Origin: Candidatus Bathyarchaeota archaeon
GTDB lineage: Archaea; Thermoproteota; Bathyarchaeia; Bathyarchaeales; Bathycorpusculaceae
Assembly (NCBI GenBank): GCA_963707955.1
Contig: OY970176.1
Coordinates: 1,760,001-1,824,000 of the forward strand
Reading direction: 5' to 3'
Length of the DNA: 64,000 nt
The stretch's first letter is position 1. Every line of letters begins with the position of its first letter. The notes below the pieces were generated by a model. The model saw nothing but the letters and a program-made list of their open reading frames with translations, did no database searches and was not told the origin of the DNA. Shown piece after piece: positions 40,881-56,384 of this stretch. The position numbers and the translations under genes are program-made.

Positions 40881-41747
40881 CTATGTGCACGCCTTACTGG
40901 GCTTGGCTTTGATGTCCAAGACTATCTGGTACCAGTTTGGGCCAGTTGCTCTAACGACGCGACCGAATGGAATCTCGAATGAGGCGCAAATGTCCAGAAG
41001 TTTCTCAGACACTTTCACCCTGACCTTGTCAACAGCGTCCTCGTCCTTCGCGGCATGTTCAAAATCATAATAGTGCACCCATCCCCCCTTCTCTTTGAGC
41101 GCCAGCAGAGCATAAGGAAGATACTCAAGGGTTTTCGCGGGCAGAGGCATAAGAACCCTGTCCGCCACATGGCACAGTCTCTCTTCAACAACCTCTCTTG
41201 CGTCGCCAAGCATCGGGACAACCCTCCCATAGACTCTGTTCATCCTGATGTTTTCTCGCATCTGCTGAACCGCTTCCGGATTAACGTCTATAGAATACGC
41301 CTTTTCGACCTCAGCATGCTTTGCCATCACTATCGAAAAACATCCCACGCCCGCAAACATGTTCACAACAGTCTCCCCATCCTCAGCCAGCCTTGCAATC
41401 CGCATTCTTTCATAGAAGAGCCTCGGCGAAAAATAGCACTTCTCAACATCAACTCTGAACAGGCATCCAGACTCCCTGTGAACTGTACAGGTTTTCCTTT
41501 CACCAGCAACATACTCCAGGCTGCGAAGCCTAAACTCTCCGCGAACAGCGCTTGCCTGTGCCAACACGGTTTTGACGTTCTTGTGAACAGCCATGATGGC
41601 CTCTGCAATCTTTTCAGAGTACTTTCTTGATCTTTCTGTCAAACGTACGATTGCGATGTCACCGACAACGTCATAAGAATTACAGACGCACACAGAATCT
41701 TGTGGAGAAAGAATCTCCGTCAGCGTTTTACTCAAACGTTTCCTCAA
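40881..41747 (-). CDS. trm5: Trm5/TYW2 (Met-10+) family tRNA methyltransferase lacking the D1 domain
   Basis: YDVVGDIAIV, HRESGC, YFSPRL..ER, NMFAGVG, DVNP, RVLMPLP. Confidence 0.8.
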   Translation of the reverse strand: MRKRLSKTLTEILSPQDSVCVCNSYDVVGDIAIVRLTERSRKYSEKIAEAIMAVHKNVKTVLAQASAVRGEFRLRSLEYVAGERKTCTVHRESGCLFRVDVEKCYFSPRLFYERMRIARLAEDGETVVNMFAGVGCFSIVMAKHAEVEKAYSIDVNPEAVQQMRENIRMNRVYGRVVPMLGDAREVVEERLCHVADRVLMPLPAKTLEYLPYALLALKEKGGWVHYYDFEHAAKDEDAVDKVRVKVSEKLLDICASFEIPFGRVVRATGPNWYQIVLDIKAKPSKACT

Positions 41748-41831
41748 GGCCTGTCATTCCGCGGATAGGATAACCATGGCCGGAAACATTTAAAAGCAGA
41801 ACGGCTTTCCTCAGTACGAAGAGGGAAACGC

Positions 41832-41999
41832 TTGGAAAAGTCACCGGCAGGCATAGTCTACGAATGCGTAAGATGCGGAGCAAAGGTTCCATCGGACGAG
41901 TTGGACATGCGCGGCGGAGAAATAAAATGCATCGTCTGCGGCTACAGGATTCTGAAAAAGGTAAAGCCGCCGGTCGTTAAACGCGTTCCTGCCAAGTAG
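41832..41999 (+). CDS. rpoP: DNA-directed RNA polymerase subunit P (Rpo12)
   Basis: Manual translation MEKSPAGIVYECVRCGAKV...IKCIVCGYRILKKVKPPVVKRVPAK; below the ORF-track length cutoff. Confidence 0.93.
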   Translation: MEKSPAGIVYECVRCGAKVPSDELDMRGGEIKCIVCGYRILKKVKPPVVKRVPAK

Positions 42000-42069
42000 A
42001 AATAAAAAAGAGAAAATGAACTACTTGATGCTGGCTCCGCCTTGAATGCTTAAGATGTCACTGGCCCCG

Positions 42070-42367
42070 CTAGAAGATCTCTTTTTCTCCAATCTTGCGG
42101 AGAGACTCTGCCGCGGAGTTTTATCGTCGGGCCGATGACCTCGTCCGGATGCTTTTCAACGGTCTTCCTCTTTATGGTCTCTCCGCAGATTCCTCTTGGC
42201 AGCAGTCGTCTTTTCACGCAGATAGCGTAGGTGCAGTCTGCGACGTTGCACGTGTCTTCAGTCCATCTGCACCAAACGTCGTCCTGGCGCTGCAGGGTCG
42301 CGTTTTTTGTACACTTGAAGGCTTCGCATCTTTGAGAACAAGTCTTGACCTGTGCCAACACATGCAC
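42070..42367 (-). CDS. small Cys-rich hypothetical protein; probable +1 frameshift near 42105
   Basis: Eight Cys (CSQRCEAFKC, WCRWTEDTC, CTYAIC, IC). Removing one base gives a clean end RGRALRKIGEKEIF*. Confidence 0.6.
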
Positions 42368-42460
42368 AACCTTTGATCATTTCTTTACCAAAACTTCATC
42401 GTTGCGAGTCTCGCTTCTCTCAACAATACTTCTAACGAGTTTTCATATAAACTTTTTTCC

Positions 42461-44524
42461 CTAAGACTCCTTATTTGAACTCTCAGTCTCACTCTTCTTC
42501 GTCTTCGAGCGTCTAAACCTGTACACTTCTAATGCCAGAACGAAGACGATTGCCAACGCGATCACGAGTATCGTGGCGAACTCGCTTGTTTCAACTAGCA
42601 ATCCTCCTAGGACGATGTACTTGCTTATTGTGACCTGAATCGTCGTTGAATTCTCGACGGTTAATCCTTGGGTCACAATCGGCTGGGTCGAATCACCCAG
42701 AAACAAGACAACTTCCAGGTTTCCTCCAATCACGTTGTTGAACGTCGCAATTCCGTCCGCTTTTGTCGGCGGCGCAGACATCGTAGGCTCTCCTTCCCTC
42801 TGCAGTTTCACGTTCACGTTTCCAATGCCCTGACCAAAATAATCAACCACCTTCACAGAGACTGTCAAGTCGTAGAGGTCGCATTGCACCATCGCACTCT
42901 GGTTCTGGAACAGATCTACAGTTGTTTCGTTAAGCATTATTCCGCTCTTGTCGTACACCATTACACTGTATATGCCCAAAGGAGGGTTAAACGTAGCACT
43001 TCCATTTTCGTCAGTGTACTGTTCATAAAGAGGTTCACCAGACATTTCTTGAACCCTTACCAGCGTGTTATTGAACGGTTGTCCGCGTGACTCAGTGGCG
43101 ATGACTCGTAACACCAAGGTAGGACAGCTGACCGTCACGTTATACCACGCCACAGCCGTTTCATTCATCAAAAGTTGAAAATTCGACGTCACGTTGAACG
43201 ATGTGCCGTAACGGGTTACGTTCAAGCCGTATTCTAAATCGGGCAACAGAGAATGAATTATGGCAGTGCCATTGAGATCTGTAGTGAATGTCTCGTTCAA
43301 CGGCGTTAAATATATTCCAGCATCAGGAATGCTAGTGTTAGCTGATGAGACCTGGACCTTCAAGTTGGTGAGGTTGCAGACAAGGTCCAGCGAGGCAGTA
43401 TCATTAACCTCTATCCCCCGCTCGCCAACGATCTCGTTCTGAGTGGTCGCGTTACACGTGTAGCTACCAACCTCAAGGTTTAACGCTGCTAGGCCAGTTG
43501 TATCAGTTGTCTCAGCGTCCGCAACGGTTCCGTTCTCAAACGCTACGACGGTCACGCCTGAAACAGGTTCTTCGGCAAGATTCCTCGCAGTGACGTTCAC
43601 TGCAAAACCAGGCACTGCGAAGGTTTGGATGTCAGGTGGGTTCTTAACCGTGGGTCCTGACGACGAGAAGACGCTGACAGTGTAGTTCCCTACCGACGTG
43701 TCTGCAGGCACAGTCCAGTTATAGTTAATCAAACCTGAAGGGTCTGTCAGGTTGTAAATGTTGTTTCCTGCTATCGTGATTGTGACATTTTCGTTCGGCT
43801 CATAGACAGCCTTGATGTTTACTGTTTGATTCCTGTGATACTGGGTCGCGTTTGTCAAACCGACGTAGAAAGTCTGATAACTCATCGTGGTGTTAAGCAA
43901 TGCCGTATAGTTACCCACGAAGTGCGTGTTGGCGCCCGCTGAGAAATCGTTTGGATAGTTTGCAGTTGCAGTCCCGTTTCCCAAAGTCGAGGTTGGTCCA
44001 ACGTTAAGCATATTTACGTACGACACGTTGGTCGGAGCTTGGACAGTGATGTTTGCGACATAAGTCATGCCTGATGCGCCCCCAGTTACGTTGACAGAAA
44101 TCGGTATCGAGTCATTTTCCTGTAACGGTTCTGCCATTGTAGGTATGACAAGCGAGTATGATGTCGTAACGTTGAAAGTTGCAGTGGCGTTGTCGTGAGT
44201 AGCAACGTCCACAACTGTAACATTGTGGTTGTTGCCTGCAGTGGTTTGAGGGACAATAAATGTTGCGTTTACGCTGTTTGCGCTAGAAGTGCCGCTCGCA
44301 GTCAGGTCTTGATCAAAATAAACGTCGTACTTGCCGTTCGCCGTGGTTACATTTGCAGTTACTGTCACAAGTGTTCCAACGTTTCCAGTATCAGGGTTCA
44401 ATCCCATTATCGACATCCCAGCCACTGCTTTGGGCAAGAGAGAAAGGGTGATCAAACCCGATGTCAATATAAGAATTAGACATGTCAATCGTTCAATCGT
44501 TTTAAGCCGAGTCTTCATCAGCAT
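42461..44524 (-). CDS. large membrane-anchored surface glycoprotein with repeated beta-sandwich (carboxypeptidase-regulatory-like) domains
   Basis: Signal peptide, T/N/V-rich with many sequons, repeated TDxxGxA motifs, C-terminal TM and basic tail. Confidence 0.8.
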   Translation of the reverse strand: MLMKTRLKTIERLTCLILILTSGLITLSLLPKAVAGMSIMGLNPDTGNVGTLVTVTANVTTANGKYDVYFDQDLTASGTSSANSVNATFIVPQTTAGNNHNVTVVDVATHDNATATFNVTTSYSLVIPTMAEPLQENDSIPISVNVTGGASGMTYVANITVQAPTNVSYVNMLNVGPTSTLGNGTATANYPNDFSAGANTHFVGNYTALLNTTMSYQTFYVGLTNATQYHRNQTVNIKAVYEPNENVTITIAGNNIYNLTDPSGLINYNWTVPADTSVGNYTVSVFSSSGPTVKNPPDIQTFAVPGFAVNVTARNLAEEPVSGVTVVAFENGTVADAETTDTTGLAALNLEVGSYTCNATTQNEIVGERGIEVNDTASLDLVCNLTNLKVQVSSANTSIPDAGIYLTPLNETFTTDLNGTAIIHSLLPDLEYGLNVTRYGTSFNVTSNFQLLMNETAVAWYNVTVSCPTLVLRVIATESRGQPFNNTLVRVQEMSGEPLYEQYTDENGSATFNPPLGIYSVMVYDKSGIMLNETTVDLFQNQSAMVQCDLYDLTVSVKVVDYFGQGIGNVNVKLQREGEPTMSAPPTKADGIATFNNVIGGNLEVVLFLGDSTQPIVTQGLTVENSTTIQVTISKYIVLGGLLVETSEFATILVIALAIVFVLALEVYRFRRSKTKKSETESSNKES

Positions 44525-44709
44525 TTCCCCTCGCAGTTCGAATGAAACGTGTGAACAACTCTAGCACTGAGACCATTTTAAACTTTACCTTTGTCTCTGC
44601 CTCTTGAACGATTTGCTTAGCGCATGAACGGTTCGAGCATAAACAATGCTGAGTCGTTACGTAAGAGTTGGCCGAAAGATGAATTAGGTTCGCAGGGGAA
44701 TAGTACGGC

Positions 44710-45912
44710 TTGCCCTTTGAGTTGTTAGAAATGATCGACGAGATTCTAGAACTCGTTCAGAGCCATGAAGAGTGGCGTGGAAAGGAATGCTTGAACCTAA
44801 TACCCTCAGAGAACGTCATGAGTCCGGCTGTCAGAGCCCTGCTCTCATCCGAGCTTGCACATCGCTACACCGCAAGAGACCGTTACTACATGGGCACACG
44901 TTTCACGGACCAAATCGAGCAGTACGGCGAGAAGGTTGCAAGGGAACTTTTCAAAGCTGAAACTGCGGATTTACGCCCTCTCTCAGGCCACATTGCCGAC
45001 CTGATCGTTCTAGCTAACCTGACGAAACAGAATGAAACACTAATGTGCGTTTCTCCGGATGACGGCGGGTACCCTGGAATGTGGAGAGACGGCCTGGCAG
45101 GCCTCCTTAAGCTTAACGTAACACCTTTCCCGTTTTCGAAGAAAGACATGAACATAAAAGTTCAGGCGGCCCAAGAAATCATACCTAAGGCAAAGCCAAA
45201 AGCCGTTATCTTCGGTGCAAGTTTGATCACTTTTCCTCATCCCGTCAAAGATCTGGCCAAAGTTGCACGCGAAAACAGTGCAATCGTAGGGTTTGACGGT
45301 TCACACGTTCTGGGGCTGATCGCCGGCGGCCAGTTTCAGGACCCGTTGAGAGAAGGCGCACAAGTTCTTTTCGGGTCGACTCATAAGAGCTTTTTTGGTC
45401 CTCAAGGAGGCATAATCTTGGCGAACAAAGAAACTGGAGAGTTCCTGAAAGAGAAAATATACCCGGCCTTCGTTGACAACGCTCACTGGAATCGAATCGC
45501 TGCACTGACCTTGGCTCTGGCTGAGATGAGAAATTTCGGCAAAGACTACGCGTTACAAGTCGTTCGGAACTCAAAGACTCTGGCCAAGAGTTTGCATGAC
45601 CTTGGCTTTCCAGTTATCTGCAGCCATCTTGGCTTCACCAAATCACATCAGGTAATCTTGGACTATGGAGACGTAAGAAAAGCAAGAAGCGTCGCCGAAA
45701 AACTCCAGCGTGCAAACATAATCGTTGATTGCGTCATCAGAGTCGGCACTTGCGAGGTTACAAGGCGTGGGATGAAGGAGGCTGATATGTTGAGAGTAGC
45801 TGAACTACTAAGAAGGGTAATCATAGACGAGGAAAGGCCAGAAGCGGTCAAGAATGACGTGGCTAGGCTATGCAGTGAATTCCAGAAAGTTGAATACTGT
45901 TTTGACCAGTAA
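44710..45912 (+). CDS. glyA: serine hydroxymethyltransferase
   Basis: LNLIPSEN, DGSHVLGLIAGG, STHKSFFGPQGG (PLP lysine). Confidence 0.93.
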   Translation: MPFELLEMIDEILELVQSHEEWRGKECLNLIPSENVMSPAVRALLSSELAHRYTARDRYYMGTRFTDQIEQYGEKVARELFKAETADLRPLSGHIADLIVLANLTKQNETLMCVSPDDGGYPGMWRDGLAGLLKLNVTPFPFSKKDMNIKVQAAQEIIPKAKPKAVIFGASLITFPHPVKDLAKVARENSAIVGFDGSHVLGLIAGGQFQDPLREGAQVLFGSTHKSFFGPQGGIILANKETGEFLKEKIYPAFVDNAHWNRIAALTLALAEMRNFGKDYALQVVRNSKTLAKSLHDLGFPVICSHLGFTKSHQVILDYGDVRKARSVAEKLQRANIIVDCVIRVGTCEVTRRGMKEADMLRVAELLRRVIIDEERPEAVKNDVARLCSEFQKVEYCFDQ

Positions 45913-45976
45913 AACTCTTTATCTTGCGTATTGCTAAATTTCCAAAGGTTCACATGGTGTTTAAGAGTGACATGCA

Positions 45977-46939
45977 ATGGAGACATTGGCTCCTTCTTCG
46001 CTCATTGATGCTCTGAAGAAGCAAAAGTATCACCTGGTTGGCCAGCATTCGGCAGTGAAAAGATGTAGATGGTTCCATGAAACCCTGATCCATGATAGAG
46101 AATGCTACAAGCAAAAGTTCTACGGCATCAAGACGCATCAGTGCATACAAATGACACCCGCAGCATTCTACTGCACTCAGCAGTGTCTTTTCTGCTGGCG
46201 AACTCAAAGCGGAGAACTTCAAGCCTCGTGGGAAGAGACAAACATGCCAACGTGGGATTCTCCAGAAGAGATCGTGCAGAAAAGCCTCAAAGCCCAGCAT
46301 GCGATCTTGAGTGGATACATAGGGAACCCCAAAACAAACAGGCAAAAATACACGGAAGCATTGACGCCCAAACACGTAGCTATAAGCCTGACTGGCGAAC
46401 CGACTCTCTACAAACCTCTGGGAGAGTTGATCCAAGTCTTCCACAGGAAGGGGTTCACCACATTTCTGGTTTCAAACGGAACTCTGCCTTCCGCTTTGGC
46501 AGAACTAACCGAAGAGCCCACTCAGCTTTACATTTCTGTCTGTGCTCCAGACGAAGAAACCTATAAGCGTGCTTGTCGTCCACAGATCTCGCGAGGCTGG
46601 GAAAAACTGAACGAAACCCTATCGCTGTTGCCCAGCTTCAAATGTCCAACGGTAATGCGAATAACGTCAGTCCGCGGCCTAAACATGAAAAACCCAAAAG
46701 CATACGCTGCACTTATCGAGAAGGCAGACCCGACCTACGTTGAAGCTAAGGCCTACATGCACGTAGGCTTCTCCAGACTTAGATTAGATTATGAGGCCAT
46801 GCCGAGCCACGGCGAGATGCAACAGTTTTCGGCGCAGTTGGCGAACGAAACAGGCTACAATTCCATCGATGAATCGCCAGAAAGCCGCGTTGTACTGCTG
46901 AGCAGGCTTCAAAACCCAATAAAATTCTGCAATGATTAG
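45977..46939 (+). CDS. taw1: 4-demethylwyosine synthase Taw1 (radical SAM)
   Basis: HSAVKRCRW, CYKQKFYGI, CTQQCLFCWR, AISLTGEPTLY, KAYMHVGFSR. Confidence 0.95.
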   Translation: METLAPSSLIDALKKQKYHLVGQHSAVKRCRWFHETLIHDRECYKQKFYGIKTHQCIQMTPAAFYCTQQCLFCWRTQSGELQASWEETNMPTWDSPEEIVQKSLKAQHAILSGYIGNPKTNRQKYTEALTPKHVAISLTGEPTLYKPLGELIQVFHRKGFTTFLVSNGTLPSALAELTEEPTQLYISVCAPDEETYKRACRPQISRGWEKLNETLSLLPSFKCPTVMRITSVRGLNMKNPKAYAALIEKADPTYVEAKAYMHVGFSRLRLDYEAMPSHGEMQQFSAQLANETGYNSIDESPESRVVLLSRLQNPIKFCND

Positions 46940-47080
46940 ACCGCGTTGCAAACAATTCATGTTCAAGTAACCTTGACGTAGTTGAATGTGTTTCTTTGAA
47001 TTAGGTGAGAACAAACCTTAAATATTGCCTCATTCATTAGCCTTGACCTTGAACTGAAAATTGAATCGAGGTGTTAACAA

Positions 47081-47272
47081 ATGGTTTGTGATGGAAGAGG
47101 CCGCCTGTTCAGAAGGAAGGACGGAAAGTACTTGATCTACCTGCCTAAGGACTTTGCAGAAGACAGTATGTTTCCGTTCAAAGGCTCTGACTCCGTGTTT
47201 GTGAAAGTGGCCTTCAAGTTCGGGGACAACAAGCTGCTGATAGAGAAATGGAAAGAGCCCGCGGTCGAATAG
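47081..47272 (+). CDS. small hypothetical protein, possibly AbrB/MazE-like swapped hairpin
   Basis: SD GAGGTG; GKYLIYLPKD...V.V....LLIEK pattern. Confidence 0.6.
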   Translation: MVCDGRGRLFRRKDGKYLIYLPKDFAEDSMFPFKGSDSVFVKVAFKFGDNKLLIEKWKEPAVE

Positions 47273-47559
47273 AGAATGGCTCTTCGAGAACAATGACTTC
47301 TTATCCCATTCTCGCAGCGTGACATTTCATTTTGAACAATTGAAGATAGCCCGCTTTCTCATTCCTGGATTCGCTTGCGGTGTGGGTTGTACTTCTTGAG
47401 TTGCTTCGTCTGCAGCTGAAATTGTGTCTCGGGAAACGAGAAGCATCGTTTGGAGGGCGTGACTCAACCTTACTATACTTCAGGAAAGGAATCTAGGGGC
47501 ATAAATATGCTCCGGTCAATGGTTCTCGGGTTTTCGGTGTGTTAGTTCGCTTACGCTCT

Positions 47560-47591
47560 ACCCCTCCGGTTCACTATATGATCCAAATATG
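47560..47591. repeat. dispersed intergenic repeat, copy 2
   Basis: CCCCTCC followed by CTATATGATCCAAATATG, identical to 28202-28219. Confidence 0.75.
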
Positions 47592-47791
47592 ATTCAACAA
47601 AAACCGCGCGCGTGTCTGTGCGACCTGAAACTCTCAACTTGAAAGAGGAAATTCGGGAATACGATTGCGCGCATGCGCCAAGTATGATTGAATGAAGTAT
47701 TGCAGCCGAGTGTTTATCTTCAATCGTCCCCTCGACACTAAACATTATATTCTGATTTTCGCATTGTTAACTGTGAACTGGTGTTGTTCAA

Positions 47792-48436
47792 ATGCCTACC
47801 CTAAAAGCTGTCTTAAGTGTCGTGAGAAAGGACCTCATCTTCAGAGACGAATTGCGCGAGAAGTCTCAAGGAGACATGCGGAAAGTGACGAGTCTTTCGA
47901 AGCAGGCGATACTTTTGATTCATCAGAAACGGTTGGAGGAGGCCGAGAAACTTGTCGCGAGAGCAGGTGAGACTCTTTCGAAGCTTTGGGACACTTCGGC
48001 TGCTCATCCAGACATCATTTACACTGGCTTGTTTAGCGCTGCGCTTCAGGAGTATTCTGAGGCAAACATTTTCTTGAGACTGGTTGAGGAATCTAGGTTC
48101 TTAACTCCTAAGGAAATCCAAGTGCCCTCAGCAGATTATGTCTTGGGGTTAGCAGACGTTATAGGCGAGTGCAGGCGCCTAGTGCTCGACGCCTTGCGTG
48201 AGGGGAACGCTGAGAGAGCTGAAAACTGTTTGCAGAGAATGGACGAGATCTTCATTGAACTTATGGGTATGGACGAGTCTTACATGCTGGTTCCTGGTTT
48301 GAGGAGAAAATGTGATGTTGCGAGAAAGCTCATTGAGATCACACGGGGGGACGTGACCCAGGAAATTCGAAGAAGCATGCTTGAAGAACACTTGAAACAA
48401 GTCGAAAAAAGCCTGAGAAAACGAAGACGCACTTGA
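47792..48436 (+). CDS. translin/TRAX (C3PO-like) family protein
   Basis: RE...R.....S..AI, QEYSEA, YVLGLADVIGECRR, LRRKCDVAR. Confidence 0.88.
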   Translation: MPTLKAVLSVVRKDLIFRDELREKSQGDMRKVTSLSKQAILLIHQKRLEEAEKLVARAGETLSKLWDTSAAHPDIIYTGLFSAALQEYSEANIFLRLVEESRFLTPKEIQVPSADYVLGLADVIGECRRLVLDALREGNAERAENCLQRMDEIFIELMGMDESYMLVPGLRRKCDVARKLIEITRGDVTQEIRRSMLEEHLKQVEKSLRKRRRT

Positions 48437-48443
48437 GACAATT

Positions 48444-49154
48444 GTGAAGGGCAGAATGACACGCGTCGGACTGAAACCCGCATTCTCAGCGAAAAAGGCT
48501 CATGAAGCTCAGAGGCGCTTATCTGAACACATTATTTCTGAGGACAAGGCTCCACAGAGAATCCGTCTGATAGGAGGCGTCGACGTTGCTTATGTTGAAG
48601 GCGCTTCAATCGCAGCTGTGGCAGTTTTGGATTTTGGTTCTATGAAGCTGAAAGAGTCACAAACAGCTATATGCCCGACACGTTTCCCCTACATTCCAAC
48701 ATTGCTTGCCTTCAGAGAAATCCCTCCAGCGCTCCTGTGTATTCGAAAGCTGCGTGTTCAGCCTGACGTTTTCCTTGTCGACGGACACGGTTTCGCTCAT
48801 CCATATCGCTGTGGATTTGCGAGCCATCTCGGACTCGTGATGAGGAAACCTACGGTAGGAGTTGCAAAAGGGATTTTGGTTGGGGAGGTTGAGCGCACGA
48901 AGGTTGAAGGAGACGTTGCCTTCATACGCGACAAAGGAGAAGTGATCGGTGCTCAGATCGTCTCAAAGCGTGGACTCAAACCCATCTGTGTTAGCGTTGG
49001 GCACATGGTTTCACTGGGAACAGCCATAGAGATCGTTAAGCAATGTACACTTTACAACCGTGTTCCGGAACCAGTCTTACAAGCTCACAGAATAGCCACG
49101 GCTGAAAAAAGAAAAGTCAATATCTCCACTGCAGCAGTAACATGTAACGAGTGA
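48444..49154 (+). CDS. nfi: endonuclease V
   Basis: GGVDVAY, FPYIPTLLAFRE, LVDGHG, GFASHLG, GVAK, SVGH, PEP. Confidence 0.95.
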   Translation: MKGRMTRVGLKPAFSAKKAHEAQRRLSEHIISEDKAPQRIRLIGGVDVAYVEGASIAAVAVLDFGSMKLKESQTAICPTRFPYIPTLLAFREIPPALLCIRKLRVQPDVFLVDGHGFAHPYRCGFASHLGLVMRKPTVGVAKGILVGEVERTKVEGDVAFIRDKGEVIGAQIVSKRGLKPICVSVGHMVSLGTAIEIVKQCTLYNRVPEPVLQAHRIATAEKRKVNISTAAVTCNE

Positions 49155-49161
49155 ATGAAAA

Positions 49162-49870
49162 TTGCTGAACCCACAACTGAGAGAATTGGCGAACAAGATC
49201 CGTGACAAGTCTCTTCGAAAAAAAACTATCGCTTTGCTTGAGGCACCAACATTCGAAGCAAACGGCAAAACGTACTCGGGAATGCCTCTTGAAATCTCGC
49301 CGGTCTGGGAGAAGCCACCATCATTCCTACCCTGGAGGTTACTTGGAGCATGTTGTTTCAGCGACAAACATCGCATTAGCGATGTGTGAGACTGCGGAGA
49401 AAATCTACCATGGGAAAGTGAACCATGACCTCGTCATAGCTGGGATGTTGTTGCATGACGTTTTCAAGCCGGCAACATACTTCGTGAACAAGGATGGACG
49501 CTACGGGTCGACACCTCTAGCAGATTATCTGGATCACCTGTTGATTGCAACTTCAGAGCTTGTTCGAAGGGGTTTCCCGCTGGAGTTGATTCACATAGTG
49601 GCCGCGCATCACGGAGAATATGGCCCGATTAGGCCCCGAACGCTTGAAGCCTTGATCTGCCACCTAGCAGACTTTGCGGACTCACGACTTAACGGTGAAG
49701 TCTTGAGCGCGGCGGCCTACCTGACGAGAAGAGTCGCCGGTCAGGAACTGTTTGGAATGACTTCGAAGGAAGCTTTCGAAATAGTCCATTCGAAGTCTGT
49801 CGAAGGTTGGGAAGGCGTTGCAAGAACTGTAGAAAGGTTAAGCCGCAAAAAGAAAGGACGCAAGCCTTAA
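49162..49870 (+). CDS. HD-domain phosphohydrolase (YhaM HD-like, no OB domain); apparent +1 frameshift near 49304
   Basis: SP(A)GRSHHHSYPGGYLEH, LLHDVFK, AHHG, PRTLEALICHLAD, split across two frames. Confidence 0.8.
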
Positions 49871-49910
49871 TAGTCGACTCAAATGAGAAGTGCGAAAAGG
49901 TGATTTGCAG

Positions 49911-50237
49911 ATGGAGATATCGTTTGAGGAGTTTCAGAATCTTGACATCCGCGTCGGAAAAATCTTGGAAGCGAATCAGATTCCAGGCTCCCGAAACCTC
50001 ATTAGAATGATTGTTGACTTTGGAACTGAAAAGAGACAGGCGGTTGCAGGGCTGCTGCAATGGTACAAGCCTGAACAGCTTGTGGGCAAGAAATGCGCCT
50101 TCATCCTCAATTTACAGAGACGAAAACTCATGGGAATAGAATCGCAGTGCATGATCTTTGCGGCCGAAGACGACAAGGGTAGTGTTGTGATTCTTCAACC
50201 AGAGAAGGATATTGCGGAAGGCAGCAAGGTACACTAA
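49911..50237 (+). CDS. stand-alone tRNA-binding OB-fold protein (Trbp111/MetRS C-terminal/CsaA-like)
   Basis: ISFEEFQNLDIRVGKI, VDFG, NLQRRKLMGIESQCMI, GSKV. Confidence 0.9.
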   Translation: MEISFEEFQNLDIRVGKILEANQIPGSRNLIRMIVDFGTEKRQAVAGLLQWYKPEQLVGKKCAFILNLQRRKLMGIESQCMIFAAEDDKGSVVILQPEKDIAEGSKVH

Positions 50238-50253
50238 TCTGGGCAACTTTTTT

Positions 50254-51522
50254 CTAGCCAGTAAATTTGATTATTGCCTCAGCTTTTTCTTCGCTTTCAG
50301 CTACGTATTCAACCATTTCCTGGTCTAGGTCAAGCCACTTGGCAAGTCCAGCCGCCATTTCCACGTTGTTCTTGAAGATTATTCTCAAGTAGGGAAGTAC
50401 CTCTTTCGATGCTCTGACGGTTGAAATGTGGCATCTTCGCTTGATTTTGGATCCTATGCTGCGCTGAATTGCACGTTCAGCCCTGGACCTTGACAGCATC
50501 TGTATGCGCTGGGGGAACTTGAAGGGTATCCACCCAGATGTTTTGGTGCCCTGTCTAGCCATGGCCACGCCGGCGGTCATGTAGTCAATTACATAACGCA
50601 AGAAGCTCCAGTCTCGAGTTGCACGGATTCTGCCACGGTAGACATCCGCCACTGCCAATGCATCCATGGCATTAGCCAAGTCATGCGGGTCTGTAAAGTG
50701 CGCTGGAACGTTCTCATAGATCCATTCAAAGAGCATGTCAACGTCAACGTCAGCCATGTCCACCGCCTGCTTTGCGCCGAAACATGTTTTACCGTAGAAT
50801 ATCATTCTTAACACGTTGAAAATGCTGTCTTGTCGGTCGCGGTAGCCAAGCCAAGAAACATCTTCGTAGGTTAGCTTCTTCTTGCCCTGTCCGAGAGCCT
50901 GAAGGTCGTTCACAGCTGACCGTATGTCGCCTCCCGAGCGTTGAGCAATGAACTTAAGCGCGTTTTCATCTGACTGTATTCCCTCTTTTTCGCAAATCTT
51001 CTTGAGGTGTTTCGCGACTTCGCTTGCAGGCGGTTTCTTGAGCTCTATGAGGAGGCAATAGTTGCGAAGGCTAGAAAAACGTGGGTCGTACGCGTTGTTG
51101 GCGATTAGAACGATAGGGCACTGTGCTGTTTTCGCGACGTCAGTTATCGCTTTGACGCCTCCCCGGTCTGCAGTTCCAGTCAAACCGTCCAGTTCGTCTA
51201 GAAGGATGATTCTTTTTCCGCCGAACAAAGATCCATACTGCGAAGCGAGGCCAGCAAAGCGGTTTATCGCTTCTTCGGTTCGGTAGTCGCTGGCGTTTTT
51301 CTCTACAAACTCCATTTTATACTCGTTTGCGATGGCCTCCACAGTGACAGTTTTTCCGATGCCTGGTGATCCGTAGAGAAATGCGCATCTCTTTTTCGGT
51401 ACGCCTTTTTCCCATGATTTTATCCAGTTGACAAACTGTTGGATGGCTTCAGTGTTTCCTACAATTTCGGTCAGTGATTTTGGTTTGTGTCTAACGGTCC
51501 AGGCATCGTACAAGTCTAGCAC
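50254..51522 (-). CDS. rfcL: replication factor C large subunit
   Basis: WTVRHKP, GSPGIGKT, NASDYR, LLDELD, GDIRSAVNDLQ, WIYEN. Confidence 0.95.
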   Translation of the reverse strand: MLDLYDAWTVRHKPKSLTEIVGNTEAIQQFVNWIKSWEKGVPKKRCAFLYGSPGIGKTVTVEAIANEYKMEFVEKNASDYRTEEAINRFAGLASQYGSLFGGKRIILLDELDGLTGTADRGGVKAITDVAKTAQCPIVLIANNAYDPRFSSLRNYCLLIELKKPPASEVAKHLKKICEKEGIQSDENALKFIAQRSGGDIRSAVNDLQALGQGKKKLTYEDVSWLGYRDRQDSIFNVLRMIFYGKTCFGAKQAVDMADVDVDMLFEWIYENVPAHFTDPHDLANAMDALAVADVYRGRIRATRDWSFLRYVIDYMTAGVAMARQGTKTSGWIPFKFPQRIQMLSRSRAERAIQRSIGSKIKRRCHISTVRASKEVLPYLRIIFKNNVEMAAGLAKWLDLDQEMVEYVAESEEKAEAIIKFTG

Positions 51523-52494
51523 CTATTCTGCGTTCTTTAGTTCGTCACCTGCTTCAACAAGCCTGGCCAATAGTGCGCTCAACTGCACCTCTTCATCCGC
51601 GCCCTCAACAAGTCTATAGTCTACTTCACCAACGATGTCGGCAAGCTTGATCTTCCACTTTTCAGGCGTGTCTGATCTGAAGATTTCTGTGTGGATTTGG
51701 CGAATCAGGTCACTTCCAGACACGCCGTATTTCTGAATCATGTCGCGCAACTGCTTTCTCGCCTCCACAAAGTTGCCGTCCATGGCAACCTTGATCATTT
51801 TTTGCACGTCTGCCGGACTGGCCCTTCCAGTTATTGAGTACACGATTTTTGCATCTATGGGTTTACTCAACGACGCGGCTGACTGCAGGGTGTTGATTGC
51901 CTTTCTCAAGTCTCCGCCACAGACTTCAAAGATAGCGTCTAAGCCGTCAGATGAGATCTTCAATTTTTCTTTTTCAGCAATCTCCTTCAAATAGCGGTCC
52001 TGCTCTTCTCTGGGCAAATGCGTGAAACGGAAGGGTGCGCATCTTGACTGGATGGGTTCTATTATTCTTCCGCTGTAGTTTGCGCACAGGACGAAACGGC
52101 ATGTTTCCGTGAAGCGTTCCATCGTTCGCCTGAGAGCTTGCTGTGCGTCTGAGGTCATGTTGTCCGCTTCGTCCAGAATCATTATCTTAAACGGGATGTC
52201 TCCGATGGATTTGACTCTGGCGAAAGTCTTCACAGTTTCCCGAACAACATCAATTCCTCTCTCGTCACTCGCGTTCAACTCCATAATATGCTCTCTATAC
52301 ACATCACCATAAAGATCTCTTGTTAGGCAGAGAGCAACCGTTGTCTTCCCTGTTCCAGGCGGGCCAGCAAAGATGCAATGCGGCACGTTTCTTGACTTAG
52401 TGAAACTCTTTAAGCGTTCGACAATCTCCTTTTGATCGACCATCTCGCTTAACCTTTTAGGCCTGTACTTTTCAGCCCACATCTCAAAACTCAA
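51523..52494 (-). CDS. rfcS: replication factor C small subunit (no intein)
   Basis: WAEKYRP, GPPGTGKT, ELNASDERG, LDEAD, IQSRC. Confidence 0.97.
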   Translation of the reverse strand: MSFEMWAEKYRPKRLSEMVDQKEIVERLKSFTKSRNVPHCIFAGPPGTGKTTVALCLTRDLYGDVYREHIMELNASDERGIDVVRETVKTFARVKSIGDIPFKIMILDEADNMTSDAQQALRRTMERFTETCRFVLCANYSGRIIEPIQSRCAPFRFTHLPREEQDRYLKEIAEKEKLKISSDGLDAIFEVCGGDLRKAINTLQSAASLSKPIDAKIVYSITGRASPADVQKMIKVAMDGNFVEARKQLRDMIQKYGVSGSDLIRQIHTEIFRSDTPEKWKIKLADIVGEVDYRLVEGADEEVQLSALLARLVEAGDELKNAE

Positions 52495-52709
52495 CCTGAA
52501 TTATCCTCCTAGTTTATACGTAGTTTTCATGTACTAATAAAAGTATATTTGAGCAGAGAAGCCTGCCTTCCTCTATTTTATTGGCTTTGTGTTGGAAAAA
52601 TCGTTGGTTCTGAAGGATGTTTCCTTTCTAGCTCAAAGTAACGCTTAAATGCTGACTGATTTTACTCACTTTGCGCTAAAAAACTGGAAATTTGAAGGGA
52701 GTGAGAAAA

Positions 52710-54317
52710 ATGTCGGAACGTGTGCATAAAAACAGTGCTTATCTGAACGGTAAATCAACGTGTGGAACGCAAACGCGTGTCAAAGATACAAGCCCGACTA
52801 GCGGAATGTGCCCAATTTGCATTCGAGACTGTCCATTCTTGTGTGAAATAAGCATGTCAGCCTTTAGGGGAAGAGAGGCACTTTATCCAGAACCGGTGCA
52901 GTTTGGTTATAGCACCGCTGGTGCTCTGAAAGACTTCGGTTTGGACTGGTCGCACTTCAACATACAAGCAGGCCTATTCGATGCGCAGGGCATTGAGCAG
53001 AACTCGGACCTGACCGTTTTCCCGAACGTGAACATAGAGACCAAAGTGGGTGGCATACCCTTGAAAGTGCCGATCCTGGCTGGCGCATTCGGTTCAACAG
53101 ACGTTGCAAGACTGAACTGGGAAGGCTTGGCCATAGGAGCTGCGCTCTCTGGTGCATCAGTCATCGTTGGAGAGAACGTTTGTGGTATGGACGCTGAGGC
53201 CCAGATCACCGGTGGAAAAGTCACCCATTCGGAAGAGTTGAAGCGAAGAGTGGATCTGTTCCGAAAGTTCTGGGACAAGAAGTACGGAGAAGTGGTTGTT
53301 CAAACAAACGTGGAAGATCAGAGGCTTGGCGTCGATGTCTACGCTATCTCAAAGCTCGAAGTGAACGTCATCGAGAGAAAGTGGGGACAGGGTGCAAAGG
53401 CAATTGGCGGCGAAGTGCGAGTCAGAGACTTGGAAAAAGCCATATTGTTGAAGAAGAGAGGCTACATCGTGATTCCAGATCCGGAAGACAAGGCTGTTCA
53501 AGAAGCTTTCAAGGATGGAGTATTCAAGTCTTTTGAAAGGCACAGCAGAGTGGGCATTCCAAAGGAGAAAAGCTTTGTCGAGGACATCGAGTGGCTGAGA
53601 AAGCAGGGCGCAAAACACGTAACACTGAAAACAGGGGCCTACAGACCTTCAGCCGTTGCCTACACTATGAAGATAGCATCTGAAGCGAAGATCGATTATG
53701 TTTCATTCGACGGCGCAGGCGGCGGAACAGGCATGAGCCCTGTACCGATGATGGACGAAATGAGCATACCGACAGTCTACCTGGAAGCTTTGGTTCTAAA
53801 ATGTGCACAGATACTGAAGAAGAAGGGCCGCTATGTTCCAGACCTGGTTATGGCAGGAGGCTTCATAGAAGAGACATCTATCTTCAAGGCGATCGCGATG
53901 AGCAACTTCGGAGAAGGCCCGTTCATCAAAGCAGTACTTCTCGGACGCTCACCGATAACCGCAGCTTTCAAAGGAGGCTACTTCAAGCAGCTGGCTGAAG
54001 AAGGGAAGCTGCCAAAGGCATTTGCAGACAAGTTCGGAGCTACACCTGACAAATTCTTCATTGCCGCACCGGATTTGAAGACCAAGTACGGAGCACGCTT
54101 CAAAGAGATACCATGGGAAGCCGTCGGAGTCTACACCTACCTAACTGACAGAATCGGCGTCGGGCTCAAGCAAATGCTGGCTGGAAACAGAAAGTGGAAG
54201 CTGGATCTTATCAGCAGAAACGACCTGATGAGCCTATCTGAAAGAGCTGCAAAAGTTACAGGCATACCGATGCCCGATGAAGTAGAAAAAGATGCAGTCG
54301 AAAAAATCCTCGGCTAG
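52710..54317 (+). CDS. FMN-binding glutamate synthase family protein (no glutamine amidotransferase domain)
   Basis: KWGQGAK, LKTG, DGAGGGTG FMN-barrel motifs; N-terminal CPICIRDCPFLC. Confidence 0.85.
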   Translation: MSERVHKNSAYLNGKSTCGTQTRVKDTSPTSGMCPICIRDCPFLCEISMSAFRGREALYPEPVQFGYSTAGALKDFGLDWSHFNIQAGLFDAQGIEQNSDLTVFPNVNIETKVGGIPLKVPILAGAFGSTDVARLNWEGLAIGAALSGASVIVGENVCGMDAEAQITGGKVTHSEELKRRVDLFRKFWDKKYGEVVVQTNVEDQRLGVDVYAISKLEVNVIERKWGQGAKAIGGEVRVRDLEKAILLKKRGYIVIPDPEDKAVQEAFKDGVFKSFERHSRVGIPKEKSFVEDIEWLRKQGAKHVTLKTGAYRPSAVAYTMKIASEAKIDYVSFDGAGGGTGMSPVPMMDEMSIPTVYLEALVLKCAQILKKKGRYVPDLVMAGGFIEETSIFKAIAMSNFGEGPFIKAVLLGRSPITAAFKGGYFKQLAEEGKLPKAFADKFGATPDKFFIAAPDLKTKYGARFKEIPWEAVGVYTYLTDRIGVGLKQMLAGNRKWKLDLISRNDLMSLSERAAKVTGIPMPDEVEKDAVEKILG

Positions 54318-54328
54318 CACCAACCCTA

Positions 54329-54345
54329 TTTTTCTTTTTTTGTTT
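54329..54345 (+). terminator. oligo-T archaeal terminator-like tract after the glutamate-synthase-family gene
   Basis: ttttt c ttttttt g ttt directly downstream of the stop codon. Confidence 0.45.
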
Positions 54346-54406
54346 CTAAAGCGACGCGCAATATTAATAACGTCAAGCAGACAGAAGATCGTTGGAGTAA
54401 TCGTTT

Positions 54407-55657
54407 ATGGTAGAGACGCAGACAGCGTTAGCAGTAGCATTGGAGCAGTTAAAAATAGCTGCTGAGAAACTCGACCTTGACCCCGGATTGCACTGCATGT
54501 TAGCACGTCCCAAGAGATCCCTTATAGTCTCCATCACGGTGAAAATGGACGATGGCAACGTTAACGTTTTCACGGGTTGCCGAGTGCAGCATTGGGATGC
54601 TAGAGGACCGTTCAAGGGTGGAATAAGGTATCATCCGAATGTCACGTTTGACGAGGTTACTGCCTTAGCGATTTGGATGACGTGGAAATGCGCAGTCGTG
54701 GACATTCCGTACGGCGGCGCCAAGGGTGGAGTGTGCTGCAACCCAAAGAAAATGTCGAAAGGCGAACTGGAGCGACTGACCAGACGATTCACGACGCTTC
54801 TCTTCGATTTCATAGGGCCGTATCGCGATGTGCCCGCACCGGACGTGTACACCGACGCTCAAACCATGGCTTGGATAATGGACACCTACAGCCAGATCAG
54901 GGGTTACAGCGTCCCAGAATGTGTCACGGGGAAACCCATAAGCGTCGGCGGTTCAGAAGGCAGAGCCGAAGCCACCTCGCTCGGCGTGGTAGTATGCGCA
55001 AGAGAAGCAGCGAAGCAGTTAGGCCTGAAGCTTAGAGGATCCACGGTTGCGGTGCAAGGCTTTGGCAATGTCGGCTGGAACGCTGCCAAGATAGCCTATG
55101 ACCTTGGTTCCAAAGTCGTTGCAGTGAGTGATTCAATAGGAGGAATCTACTCTGCAAGGGGTCTGAACCCTTACGATGTGTACAAGCACAAGTCGAAAAC
55201 GGGTTCAGTGATCAACTACAAGGGAAGCCAAAACATAACGAACGAGGATGTCCTTGAAGCAAGATGCGACATACTTATCCCCGCAGCCTTAGAAAACCAG
55301 ATAAAGAAAACGAACGCAGACAAGATCAAAGCGAGAATCGTAGTTGAGGGTGCAAACGGGCCGACAACGCCTGAAGCCGACAGAGCTCTTCACGAGAAGG
55401 GAATCGTTCTCATTCCAGACATCTTGGCAAACTCTGGAGGCGTTGCGACAAGCTATTTTGAGTGGGTTCAGAATCTGACGCGAGAACATTGGACGTTGGA
55501 GGATGTGAACCGGAAACTGGAAGGCAAGATGATCAAGGCCTTCAATGATGTTCACAAGATGGCGAAGGAGGAGGAGAGTGACATGCGAACGGGGGCGTTG
55601 ATGCTGGGAGTGGGAAGAGTAGCGGAGGCGATTAAGACTCTGGGTCTCTGGCCGTAG
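54407..55657 (+). CDS. gdhA: glutamate dehydrogenase (Glu/Leu/Phe/Val family)
   Basis: GPFKGGIRYHP, MTWK, GGAKGG, DVPAPD, VTGKP, QGFGNVG, EGANGP, SYFEWVQN. Confidence 0.93.
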   Translation: MVETQTALAVALEQLKIAAEKLDLDPGLHCMLARPKRSLIVSITVKMDDGNVNVFTGCRVQHWDARGPFKGGIRYHPNVTFDEVTALAIWMTWKCAVVDIPYGGAKGGVCCNPKKMSKGELERLTRRFTTLLFDFIGPYRDVPAPDVYTDAQTMAWIMDTYSQIRGYSVPECVTGKPISVGGSEGRAEATSLGVVVCAREAAKQLGLKLRGSTVAVQGFGNVGWNAAKIAYDLGSKVVAVSDSIGGIYSARGLNPYDVYKHKSKTGSVINYKGSQNITNEDVLEARCDILIPAALENQIKKTNADKIKARIVVEGANGPTTPEADRALHEKGIVLIPDILANSGGVATSYFEWVQNLTREHWTLEDVNRKLEGKMIKAFNDVHKMAKEEESDMRTGALMLGVGRVAEAIKTLGLWP

Positions 55658-55817
55658 TGGCGCAGAGACACTTTCAGTCTTCTTTTTTCTCTGAAGAGCG
55701 AGAGATCGGATGCAGTTTCCAACTTTGTTATGCTCTTTAATCTAAACTTTTAAACTGTTCTTCTTATATCTGCTCTAAGTGATTTGCCTTAGAGTCAAGC
55801 GTGAGGAGGGGTAGCAG

Positions 55818-56384
55818 ATGGCGAAGACAGCTTCGATGAGAATGGACAGTTTGGACTTCATATTCCAGAATTCGCCCGTGAGGATCGTGGCCAACCGAAA
55901 TTGTGCAGAAATCAAGCTTGCGGGGTTGAGTGTTGGGCCCTTCGAGGAGGGAAACGAGTACGAGGTCAGTTATTGGGTGGCTTCAGAACTTGCAAAATCT
56001 GGAATTGTTCACTTTCACGCGGAAGACCAGCTTGACACTGGTAAGCTGGGCAAGATTCAGTGGACAGAGCGTGTCCAAACGGCTGGGCAGGTGTCTAAGC
56101 TTCCTGAGGGTTTTTATCCGAAGCTTCGGCGGTGTCTTGCAGAGTTGCGAGAAGGCGCTGCCAACAACCCTGAGAAGATGAAGGAGTATGAAAGAGCTGA
56201 TCAGTTGACGATGGACATCGTTAATTCTAGGTTGAAGAAGGTCGTGTCGATCGCGTCGGCGCCGGCCCAGACTGAGAGCAGGCTGAGAGATTTCACTGCA
56301 GAGGAGAGACTTCTGTACGAGCGGCTTTTCAGTGTTATCAATCATTGGAAGACGAAGATATTGGAGCGCGGGGGAGGGGAGTAG
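55818..56384 (+). CDS. GINS complex subunit Gins23-like
   Basis: B-domain-first pattern (EVSYWVASEL..G), LPEGFY, RLKKVV, TAEERLLY; directly abuts mcm. Confidence 0.8.
   Translation: MAKTASMRMDSLDFIFQNSPVRIVANRNCAEIKLAGLSVGPFEEGNEYEVSYWVASELAKSGIVHFHAEDQLDTGKLGKIQWTERVQTAGQVSKLPEGFYPKLRRCLAELREGAANNPEKMKEYERADQLTMDIVNSRLKKVVSIASAPAQTESRLRDFTAEERLLYERLFSVINHWKTKILERGGGE

Follow-up and report, generated by a model that had tools for sequence, protein, structure and literature searches.

In archaea, a gene cluster of the order TYW1-TRAX-SepRS-EndoV has been published for Euryarchaeota, TACK and Asgard members, and the available text of the two reports describes TRAX-SepRS-EndoV, accompanied by TYW1/Taw1, riboflavin kinase or DUF169, as the 'ancestral operon' of clade I SepRS (Mukai 2017 mBio, PMC5424206; 2022 Front Genet, PMC8762117). 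These two papers were the only ones found in our literature search on translin in Bathyarchaeota. We know of no cellular role for an archaeal TRAX/C3PO, and the enzymes of the endonuclease V (EndoV) family cleave at the second bond 3' of inosine. According to the accessible portion of PMC8438529, Pfu-EndoV cuts inosine-containing RNA and Afu- and Tba-EndoV act on DNA only; the lesion stays on the 3' side after the EndoV nick, the later steps being described as unsettled in all domains of life; the E. coli pathway requires the 3'-5' exonuclease of Pol I, and no genetic study of an archaeal EndoV is reported. The B. subtilis route is given as YwqL-ExoA-PolA (available part of PMC6364969). Among the archaeal C3PO proteins, AfTRAX (3ZC0/3ZC1) and NeC3PO (NEQ131, 5JR9), the latter has the tetrad E82/E85/D117/E121, prefers ssRNA to ssDNA in cleavage by a factor of at least 10 and can process strands of 49 nt, those of 77 nt being handled poorly (PMC5100593, as far as its available text goes). 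The YhaM/Cbf1 3'-5' exonuclease of Firmicutes (9H3F, 9O7T) has the metal site H163/H193/D194/H250/H251/D274 (PMC12107432), and an N-terminal OB fold is stated for all members of the YhaM family (PMC11347170; both from the parts available).

The window analysed here is the whole stretch of 64,000 nucleotides. It carries, all on the forward strand, the row TRAX-like translin, EndoV, YhaM-type HD protein without OB fold and free Trbp, with the following features in and around it.

45977..46939, + strand: TYW1/Taw1 radical-SAM tRNA-wyosine enzyme (PF08608 2.8e-21, PF04055 1.7e-13)
47081..47272, + strand: orf63, 63 aa, between TYW1 and translin, strongly conserved
47792..48436, + strand: TRAX-like translin, 214 aa, C3PO-type nuclease subunit (PF01997 E 3.8e-12)
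48444..49154, + strand: endonuclease V, 236 aa from GTG 48444 (PF04493 E 6.8e-63, NF008629 2.6e-62)
49162..49870, + strand: YhaM-type HD protein without OB fold, 235 aa after removal of a spurious T (PF01966 E 2.7e-09, HDIG)
49304..49304, + strand: extra T, assembly error in the HD frame, missing from relatives and short-read contigs
49911..50237, + strand: free Trbp111/MetRS-C-terminal-domain-like protein, 108 aa from ATG (PF01588 E 4.5e-27)
50248..50253, + strand: T6 run 3' of the Trbp stop codon, in the interval where the Trbp and RFC-large genes converge (sequence reading)

An earlier note on this DNA had named the same four genes and their tight co-orientation, and both are upheld by the Pfam profile matches (PF01997, PF04493, PF01966 and PF01588) and by the spacing, which is 7 nt from translin to EndoV, 7 nt from EndoV to HD and 40 nt from HD to the ATG at 49911 of Trbp (19 nt to its GTG). 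The three gaps between the genes of the row contain no T-run; the T6 run occurs only after Trbp and is a possible candidate for an archaeal terminator. Directly beyond Trbp, the genes of the RFC large and small subunits lie convergent on the opposite strand. Upstream of translin, a TTATAT was read by eye at 47745-47750. No Rfam family was found within 44000-53000 at E up to 0.1, and no tRNA gene within 40000-56000. The orf63 product has a mean column identity of 78% (28 sequences) and is modelled as an all-beta protein with a pLDDT of 69.5; it has no Pfam match, and Foldseek returned nothing at E <= 0.001 for this mediocre model.

The translin, present in single copy in the genome, scores 47 bits with PF01997 (cut-off 25.9). 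Its best PDB match is AfTRAX (3zc1, E 7.5e-19), followed by NEQ131, which places it in the same translin fold family, with an identity of only about 25-30%. The residues E87, E90, D122 and E126 are invariant in 42/42 aligned translins, which agrees with the acidic catalytic-type motifs QEYSE (E87/E90) and D..GE (D122/E126) noticed earlier, and they reproduce the E-E-D-E tetrad of NeC3PO with the same +3/+32/+4 spacing. In the alignment, D122 corresponds to the AfTRAX residue that is changed from D to A in 3zc0. Moreover, one gene per genome is the arrangement here too, as with the homo-octamers of AfTRAX and NEQ131. A complex prediction of two translin chains with EndoV, run with alignments, gave a score of 0.14 against a mark of 0.32 and speaks neither for nor against an interaction.

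EndoV matches positions 2-198 of the 198 of PF04493 (212 bits), with ATG 48456 as an alternative start. All 40 aligned sequences share D47, Y83 (in PYIP) and E92; D113 is present here and in 33/40, K142 in 36/40 and H215 in 39/40. The roles of these residues, metal binding by D/E/D and a wedge formed by PYIP, are presumably those of the T. maritima enzyme.

In the window, the HD gene, starting at TTG 49162 and ending at 49870, falls into two frames, A at 49162-49389 (75 aa) and B at 49202-49870. The T at 49304 is missing in the relatives G001, G007 and G003 and is also left out in the Logan contigs of X1 (depth 34.2), X2 (5.3) and X4 (9.9); the contigs of X3 do not span this position. Since the short-read contigs of X1, the probable source sample, lack the T, it is taken as an assembly error, and the HD gene is therefore whole in the organism and encodes 235 aa. 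A programmed +1 frameshift or a pseudogene was considered and rejected on the same grounds, the T being absent from X1, X2, X4 and the relatives.

The earlier description of this protein as YhaM-like and devoid of an OB fold holds. A profile search of the PDB with HD retrieved YhaM only (9h3f 9.9e-15, 9o7t 7.4e-11), and the structure model (pLDDT 89.5) had 9h3f as its sole significant Foldseek match (E 5.8e-07, TM 0.59/0.65, rmsd 3.0 over 193 columns), the next match reaching a TM of 0.33. The residues H63, H98, D99, H149, H150 and D170, invariant in 21/21 sequences, align onto H163/H193/D194/H250/H251/D274 of YhaM, so that the extended H..HD..HH..D two-metal site and the overall HD fold are shared. 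On the other hand, no OB Pfam match was found in HD, and residues 1-47 of the model form two helices and a hairpin; this 47-residue element replaces the N-terminal OB domain, and the protein has 235 aa against about 315-325 aa in YhaM/Cbf1. Without the N-terminal OB fold, HD should therefore not be filed as YhaM proper. Its nuclease activity is also not assured, because the 26-kDa N-terminally truncated YhaM of S. aureus is reported to be without RNase activity (available text of PMC11347170). Fused forms of HD of at least 413 aa (HD-EndoV, HD-OB or HD-Trbp) were searched for and none was found, which is weak evidence, and none of the papers listed by our literature search joined YhaM, archaea and endonuclease V.

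The HD protein may also be thought of as MptB of pterin biosynthesis, the 7,8-dihydroneopterin 2',3'-cyclic phosphate phosphodiesterase; its substrate would then be a small molecule, and it would have no link to the genes around it. Many close homologues carry the MptB name at JGI (automatic names), the Atlas clusters of HD homologues, one of them of Methanobacteriota, are named likewise, and a gene for the pterin-dependent enzyme SHMT lies three genes upstream of HD. However, MptA/FolE2 (PF02649), which produces the substrate of MptB, was found in just 2/41 relatives, a set in which 34 have HD; the sole significant PDB match of HD, by sequence and by fold, is YhaM, and no MptB-type NCBIfam match was seen for it. 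With the substrate-making enzyme so rare, this reading was set low and is considered very improbable.

The Trbp ORF (49890-50237) opens at GTG 49890 and gives 108-115 aa; the likely start is ATG 49911, which has GGTGA at 49899-49903 ahead of it. Like Trbp111 and the C-terminal domain of MetRS (the 'MetRS beta subunit'), it is a protein of the PF01588 fold (94 bits), free and of ~110 aa, and it passes the TIGR00399 metG_C_term cut-off of 116.65 with 122.4 bits; here, in distinction, it is encoded far from MetRS and behind nuclease genes. It is the sole PF01588 match in the genome (G000), and the MetRS of this genome, a 577-aa ORF (G000:C1:367424-368602), is without the PF01588 domain. In the genomes G026, G028 and G038 the domain is fused to MetRS, and in the sisters G026 and G028, which have the HD gene, this fused copy is the only one found. 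Trbp adjoins HD in 0/13 HD loci from other families; it stands behind EndoV in G012, where there is no HD gene, and next to RFC without HD in G025. From these sequence relations, Trbp is best read as a split-off C-terminal domain of MetRS and not as a dedicated OB partner of HD. The suggestion that Trbp supplies the missing OB function of HD in trans is thus not supported, as the domain would complement a MetRS lacking it and as HD is kept where Trbp is fused to MetRS.

The order Translin-EndoV-HD-Trbp was found in 75/80 HD-anchored Bathyarchaeia loci, which are close relatives with common ancestry chosen by the HD gene itself, and contig ends interrupt the remaining 5; the order thus reaches beyond one genome, whereas synteny confined to a single genome was what the earlier note had named as a refutation. 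The median gaps in these loci are approximately 0, 14 and 23 nt, EndoV and HD are adjacent in nearly all of them, and in most of them TYW1 is the next gene upstream of translin or close to it. TYW1 is likewise upstream in the translin-anchored loci L046-L049, L055, L056, L063, L080 and L081. Translin and EndoV are adjacent or overlapping on one strand in 6/40 translin-anchored loci of other families (L068, L071, L072, L076, L080, L081), and in 8/40 of this set (L046-L048, L055, L056, L082-L084) SepRS stands directly behind translin, with EndoV following in all but L046. The HD-anchored L032 and L040 also have SepRS, bringing the count to 10/72 loci in total. SepRS is present in none of the 80 close HD-anchored loci and was not found in G000, the best match being a 416-aa ORF with 30% identity over 160 residues; the adjacency of translin and EndoV therefore persists without SepRS.

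In comparison to the published 'ancestral operon', the same order of TYW1, TRAX and EndoV on one strand is found here, and the relatives L032, L040, L047, L048, L055, L056 and L082-L084 keep SepRS between translin and EndoV, whereas in this genome SepRS has been lost and orf63, HD and Trbp have been added. The core of the cluster is already known, and this genome has a SepRS-less derived form of it, trimmed and extended. No mention of HD or Trbp was found in the text of PMC8762117 and PMC5424206 that was available, and the figures or supplements of these papers may show them. A layered history is well supported, in which HD and then Trbp were added to an old TYW1 - TRAX - [SepRS] - EndoV core. 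The insertion of HD behind EndoV at the order level and the juxtaposition of Trbp at the family level are equally well supported, Trbp arriving together with the opposite-strand RFC genes. The tRNA theme proposed earlier is borne out in this form, translin-EndoV being the remnant of the published cluster with TYW1 still upstream. Hence, the earlier interpretation stands for the gene identities, the co-orientation, the order and the tRNA theme, and fails for Trbp as the OB fold of HD in trans; the sequential module that it proposed for recognising, nicking and degrading RNA stays a hypothesis.

The phyletic profiles show no obligate partnership among translin, EndoV and HD, each of which is present without the others in many genomes. 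Translin and EndoV occur, respectively, in 43/44 and 2/44 genomes of family f19, 0/12 and 12/12 of f26, 1/18 and 17/18 of f31, and 4/14 and 14/14 of f23. Of the 24 genomes of f24, 17 carry EndoV and 22 carry HD, so at least 5 have HD without EndoV; conversely, EndoV occurs without HD in G012, G034, G114, G316, G098, G246, G305 and others. Outside this taxonomic order, HD is separated from translin by 19-45 kb or placed on a different contig (examples are G047, G163, G094, G078, G212, G264). Such independence would be expected if the synteny were inherited with no functional coupling, four housekeeping genes being kept together by descent and operon economy. The growth of the cluster by accretion, with HD gained at the order level, Trbp at the family level and SepRS lost, fits this explanation, as does the origin of the 75/80 count in close kin selected by the HD gene. 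It is nevertheless somewhat unlikely, as translin and EndoV remain adjacent, often overlapping, in the distant families f35, f38, f49 and f54 after the loss of SepRS, and the adjacency spans archaeal phyla (available text of PMC8762117), which is more than drift usually retains.

The best explanation overall, held tentatively, is that the layered cluster encodes three co-expressed nucleases in tRNA or small-RNA maintenance which form no obligate complex. Where adenine deamination has produced an inosine, EndoV would cut the RNA, or DNA, one bond to its 3' side; a homo-oligomeric TRAX barrel, taking short strands only, would degrade the EndoV fragments, and HD, as a 3'-5' enzyme of the Mn type, would trim the newly made 3' ends. 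Trbp may be a general tRNA-binding cofactor, a beta-like part of MetRS, made from the same transcript with no specific tie to HD. Three neighbours are related to tRNA, namely TYW1 ahead of the nucleases, Trbp behind them and, in relatives, SepRS. A shared role in tRNA/RNA clean-up is plausible. The action of Pfu-EndoV and NeC3PO on RNA speaks for this reading; the DNA-only Afu- and Tba-EndoV, the best binding of YhaM to ssDNA and the independent occurrence of translin, EndoV and HD speak against it.

The same set of enzymes may also be arranged into a repair of inosine in DNA, in which an EndoV nick 3' of hypoxanthine is followed by removal of the 3' lesion end by HD, clearance of displaced single strands by TRAX and RFC/PCNA-dependent fill-in. 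The pairing of EndoV with a 3'-5' exonuclease would be common to this scheme and to the EndoV-initiated alternative excision repair of E. coli (Nfi and Pol I) and B. subtilis (YwqL-ExoA-PolA), the candidate exonuclease here being the HD protein encoded beside EndoV. The lesion left 3' of the nick, the need of E. coli for Pol I and the DNA-only Afu- and Tba-EndoV (PMC8438529), the B. subtilis precedent (PMC6364969), the near-constant EndoV-HD adjacency and the convergent RFC genes all speak in its favour, and YhaM is described as a 3'-deoxyribonuclease which prefers and best binds ssDNA. However, dsDNA and base-paired ends are not attacked by YhaM (both statements from the available part of PMC12107432), at least five f24 genomes have HD without EndoV and many genomes EndoV without HD, the long-standing neighbours SepRS and TYW1 are tRNA enzymes rather than repair genes, and the RFC adjacency goes with Trbp and not with HD, as in G025. 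DNA repair is accordingly regarded as unlikely.

A more specific form of cooperation can be drawn by analogy. In RISC activation, Ago2 acts as a nickase and C3PO, a TRAX barrel, then clears the nicked short strand. Similarly, TRAX and EndoV might be an archaeal pair of the 'nick and clear' kind, in which EndoV would mark and nick inosine-bearing strands and the TRAX barrel would remove the short nicked products; in this Bathyarchaeia order, HD would then be the sought 3'-5' exonuclease that removes the 3'-end inosine and completes EndoV-initiated excision or decay, in RNA or DNA. The likeness to Ago2 and C3PO is an analogy only: in both, a TRAX barrel would act after an endonuclease that nicks, but the part of the nickase would fall to EndoV in this case, and we know of no small-RNA pathway. 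We consider this proposal doubtful.

In this lineage, the EndoV gene is flanked immediately by that of a TRAX nuclease and that of a candidate 3'-5' exonuclease of the YhaM type, an arrangement that bears on the step after the EndoV nick. If the proteins cooperate, the locus would show what follows EndoV in its pathway and would give prokaryotic C3PO a first cellular role. Otherwise, the much-cited TRAX-SepRS-EndoV neighbourhood would be a historical trace only.

The four co-oriented genes described in the earlier note were found to be present in the window, as follows:

47792-48436, + strand: translin (PF01997, E 3.8e-12)
48444-49154, + strand: endonuclease V, EndoV (PF04493, E 6.8e-63)
TTG 49162 to 49870, + strand: HD-domain protein (PF01966, E 2.7e-09, HDIG)
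ORF 49890-50237, + strand: tRNA_bind protein, Trbp (PF01588, E 4.5e-27)

The gaps are 7 nt (translin-EndoV), 7 nt (EndoV-HD) and 40 nt from HD to the Trbp ATG at 49911, which is preceded by GGTGA at 49899-49903; the last gap is 19 nt if GTG 49890 is taken as the start. Direct reading of the sequence found no T-run in the three gaps, and a T6 run (50248-50253) lies after the Trbp stop, just ahead of the convergent RFC-large gene; the four genes may be co-transcribed.

The HD gene is divided between two frames in the window, its N-terminal 47 residues being in the frame of TTG 49162 and the HD domain in the +1 frame (ORF 49202-49870); in all relatives it is a single open frame of ~235 aa. Alignment with three relatives (G001, G007, G003) has shown one extra T at 49304, which is an assembly error, as the base is left out by the Logan short-read contigs of samples X1 (the probable source; depth 34), X2 and X4 (a related strain), X3 being without coverage there. 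A pseudogene or recoded HD gene is ruled out by these contigs and by the relatives, which lack the extra T. The X1 contigs differ from the assembly at three positions in 3.4 kb (47219, 48848 and 49304): T>C at 47219 changes F47 to L, as in relatives, in the 63-aa protein upstream of translin (orf63), and A>G at 48848 leaves the EndoV protein unchanged. The window's genome (G000; 2.35 Mb, one contig) probably contains residual consensus errors. The HD match is also interrupted by one in-frame TAG or TGA in L138 (G138), L083/G083, G079 and G189; the stop could reflect sequencing error, a pseudogene or recoding.

The second gene is indeed endonuclease V and keeps its key residues D47, Y83 (in PYIP), E92, D113, K142 and H215, with roles as known from T. 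maritima EndoV. The nearest solved structures of the translin are AfTRAX (7.5e-19), NEQ131 and then eukaryotic TRAX chains, with no translin chain among the solved-structure matches; by sequence it is TRAX-like. The acidic catalytic-type residues noticed earlier, E87, E90, D122 and E126, are invariant in 42/42 sequences spanning the phylum and have the spacing of the catalytic E82/E85/D117/E121 of NeC3PO, as given in the available text of PMC5100593. The same text gives NeC3PO a preference of 10-fold or more for ssRNA relative to ssDNA and describes it as handling 49-nt strands, and 77-nt strands poorly. The gene is single-copy in G000, like those of the homo-octameric archaeal C3POs.

For the HD protein, a family profile search of the PDB matched YhaM only (9h3f, 9.9e-15; 9o7t, 7.4e-11), and 9h3f was the sole significant fold match (E 5.8e-07, TM 0.59/0.65) of its AlphaFold model (pLDDT 89.5); the NCBIfam YhaM model NF010007 matches weakly. 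The proposed YhaM-like HD domain lacking its OB fold was thereby confirmed, the OB domain being absent and residues 1-47 being modelled as two helices and a hairpin. Many homologues are named dihydroneopterin cyclic phosphate phosphodiesterase (MptB) in JGI and Atlas, whereas MptA/FolE2, which produces the MptB substrate, was found in 2/41 relatives and the HD protein in 34 of the same 41; an MptB identity is very improbable. An MptA/FolE2-type GTP cyclohydrolase (PF02649) does occur in G000 outside the window (C1:901905-902644), divided in two by a single TAG, either through assembly error or as a pseudogene. Some ORFs of 309-333 aa, as long as genuine OB+HD YhaM proteins, contain weak HD matches at E 1e-9 to 1e-20 (G200:C84:3123-3509, G281:C8:27619-28011, and in G105, G059, G166, G211 and G193); judging from length, Thermoproteota lineages without the short form may carry full-length YhaM-like genes.

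The six YhaM metal ligands, according to the accessible part of PMC12107432, align to invariant H63, H98, D99, H149, H150 and D170, and YhaM is described there as degrading ssRNA and ssDNA 3'-5' with Mn2+. DNA inosine repair, with the HD protein as the missing 3'-5' exonuclease, is a distinctly unlikely function for the cluster.

The suggestion that Trbp supplies the OB fold in trans is not unfounded, since a 26-kDa YhaM truncated at its N-terminus is reported as inactive in the excerpted PMC11347170. It was not borne out among relatives. Trbp is free-standing as claimed and carries the only PF01588 domain of G000 (TIGR00399 metG_C_term, 122.4 bits, cut-off 116.65); MetRS is encoded at a distant site, in a 577-aa ORF without this domain. 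The tRNA_bind domain was found solely as the MetRS C-terminus in G026 and G028, and G038 has both this fusion and a free copy. These fused enzymes are 59-66% identical to the G000 MetRS, and HD is present in each of the three genomes. Conversely, Trbp stands without HD beside the RFC genes in G025 and after EndoV in G012. Hence, Trbp is best read as a split-off MetRS C-domain brought beside nuclease genes in one family, and the genome comparison does not indicate an OB partner for the HD protein, if any exists.

The four-gene order extends beyond this genome. Near home, 32 loci anchored on the HD gene and 80 more were examined. The usual order is SHMT, TYW1, orf63, translin, EndoV, HD and Trbp, with RFC-large and RFC-small on the opposite strand. 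All four genes were in order in 75/80 loci (the remaining 5 cut by contig ends; median gaps ~0, 14 and 23 nt), a conditional figure and not a count of independent events, the loci having been picked by the HD gene and being close kin. Trbp follows HD in 19 of the 32 loci (18 from family f1 and one from family f8) and in 0/13 loci of f2-f7, f9, f10 and f12, 3-4 of which end soon past HD. The protein orf63 (47081-47272), always between TYW1 and translin within this taxonomic order, is more conserved than its neighbours (78% mean column identity, 28 Bathyarchaeia sequences) and has no Pfam family or fold match. The spacer behind it (47273-47791) is 519 bp in the window's genus vs ~100 bp in other genera; neither an RNA family nor a tRNA was found in it, and it is probably unconstrained, since it holds many of the positions at which strain X4 differs. 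A contig titled 'Candidatus Acidiferrales bacterium' (L101, DASPPK010000064.1) carries HD-Trbp-RFC at 94% identity to Bathyarchaeia genes and is probably mis-binned or mislabelled. Upstream, 42461-44524 (- strand) encodes what is, judged by eye, probably a glycosylated surface protein of 687 aa: its N-terminus resembles a signal or anchor, a transmembrane stretch lies at the C-terminus, and N-x-S/T sequons are very numerous.

Judging from their presence by family, the genes do not depend on each other. In a 301-genome sample, translin and EndoV were present in 43/44 vs 2/44 genomes of f19, 0/12 vs 12/12 of f26, 1/18 vs 17/18 of f31, 4/14 vs 14/14 of f23 and 16/16 vs 10/16 of f1. The HD family (threshold E up to 1e-15) was found in 79/301 genomes, including f13, f15, f21, f24 (22/24), f25 (6/6), f30, f36, f43, f45 and f48, where 19-45 kb separate it from translin or the two are on different contigs (e.g. 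G047, G163, G094, G078, G212, G264). EndoV occurs in 17/24 f24 genomes, therefore at least 5 have HD without EndoV; EndoV without HD is common (G012, G034, G114, G316, G098, G246, G305). Six f1 genomes lack both, explained by one deletion because the genes are adjacent. Plain inherited synteny, as an account of the cluster, is rather unlikely.

Among 40 loci anchored on translin, drawn from other families within the phylum, translin and EndoV adjoin or overlap on one strand in L068 (f35), L071, L072 (f38), L076 (f49), L080 (f54) and L081 (G012, f1), and in L049 and L057 they lie next to each other on opposite strands; TYW1 immediately precedes translin in L046-L049, L055, L056, L063, L080 and L081. 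Sampled loci of f19, f20, f27, f28, f32-f34, f37, f42, f44 and f50-f52 had no EndoV within 8 kb of translin. A 530-545-aa gene directly behind translin in 10/72 loci (L032, L040, L046-L048, L055, L056, L082-L084), and in 0/80 close loci, is SepRS (PF01409 and SepRS_C, checked on L048 and L082). An ancestral TRAX-SepRS operon is described in the available portion of Mukai et al., mBio 2017 (PMC5424206); a 2022 update, in the part at hand (PMC8762117), places SepRS most commonly with TRAX and endonuclease V and occasionally with TYW1/Taw1, riboflavin kinase or DUF169, the most complete operon being in some Bathyarchaeota and other lineages having probably lost parts. SepRS was not found in G000; the window cluster is therefore a SepRS-less derivative of the published TRAX-SepRS-EndoV cluster, new as a variant with its core already published.

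Hence the earlier interpretation as an RNA quality-control module stands in part, the cluster itself being real and the OB supply by Trbp being unsupported. Gene identities, intact active sites and a conserved order beside tRNA enzymes are established, and the genes may tentatively be regarded as co-expressed enzymes of tRNA and small-RNA maintenance, in which EndoV would cut at inosine, the size-limited TRAX barrel would clear short fragments and the HD enzyme would trim 3' ends, substrates and order of action being as supposed here.
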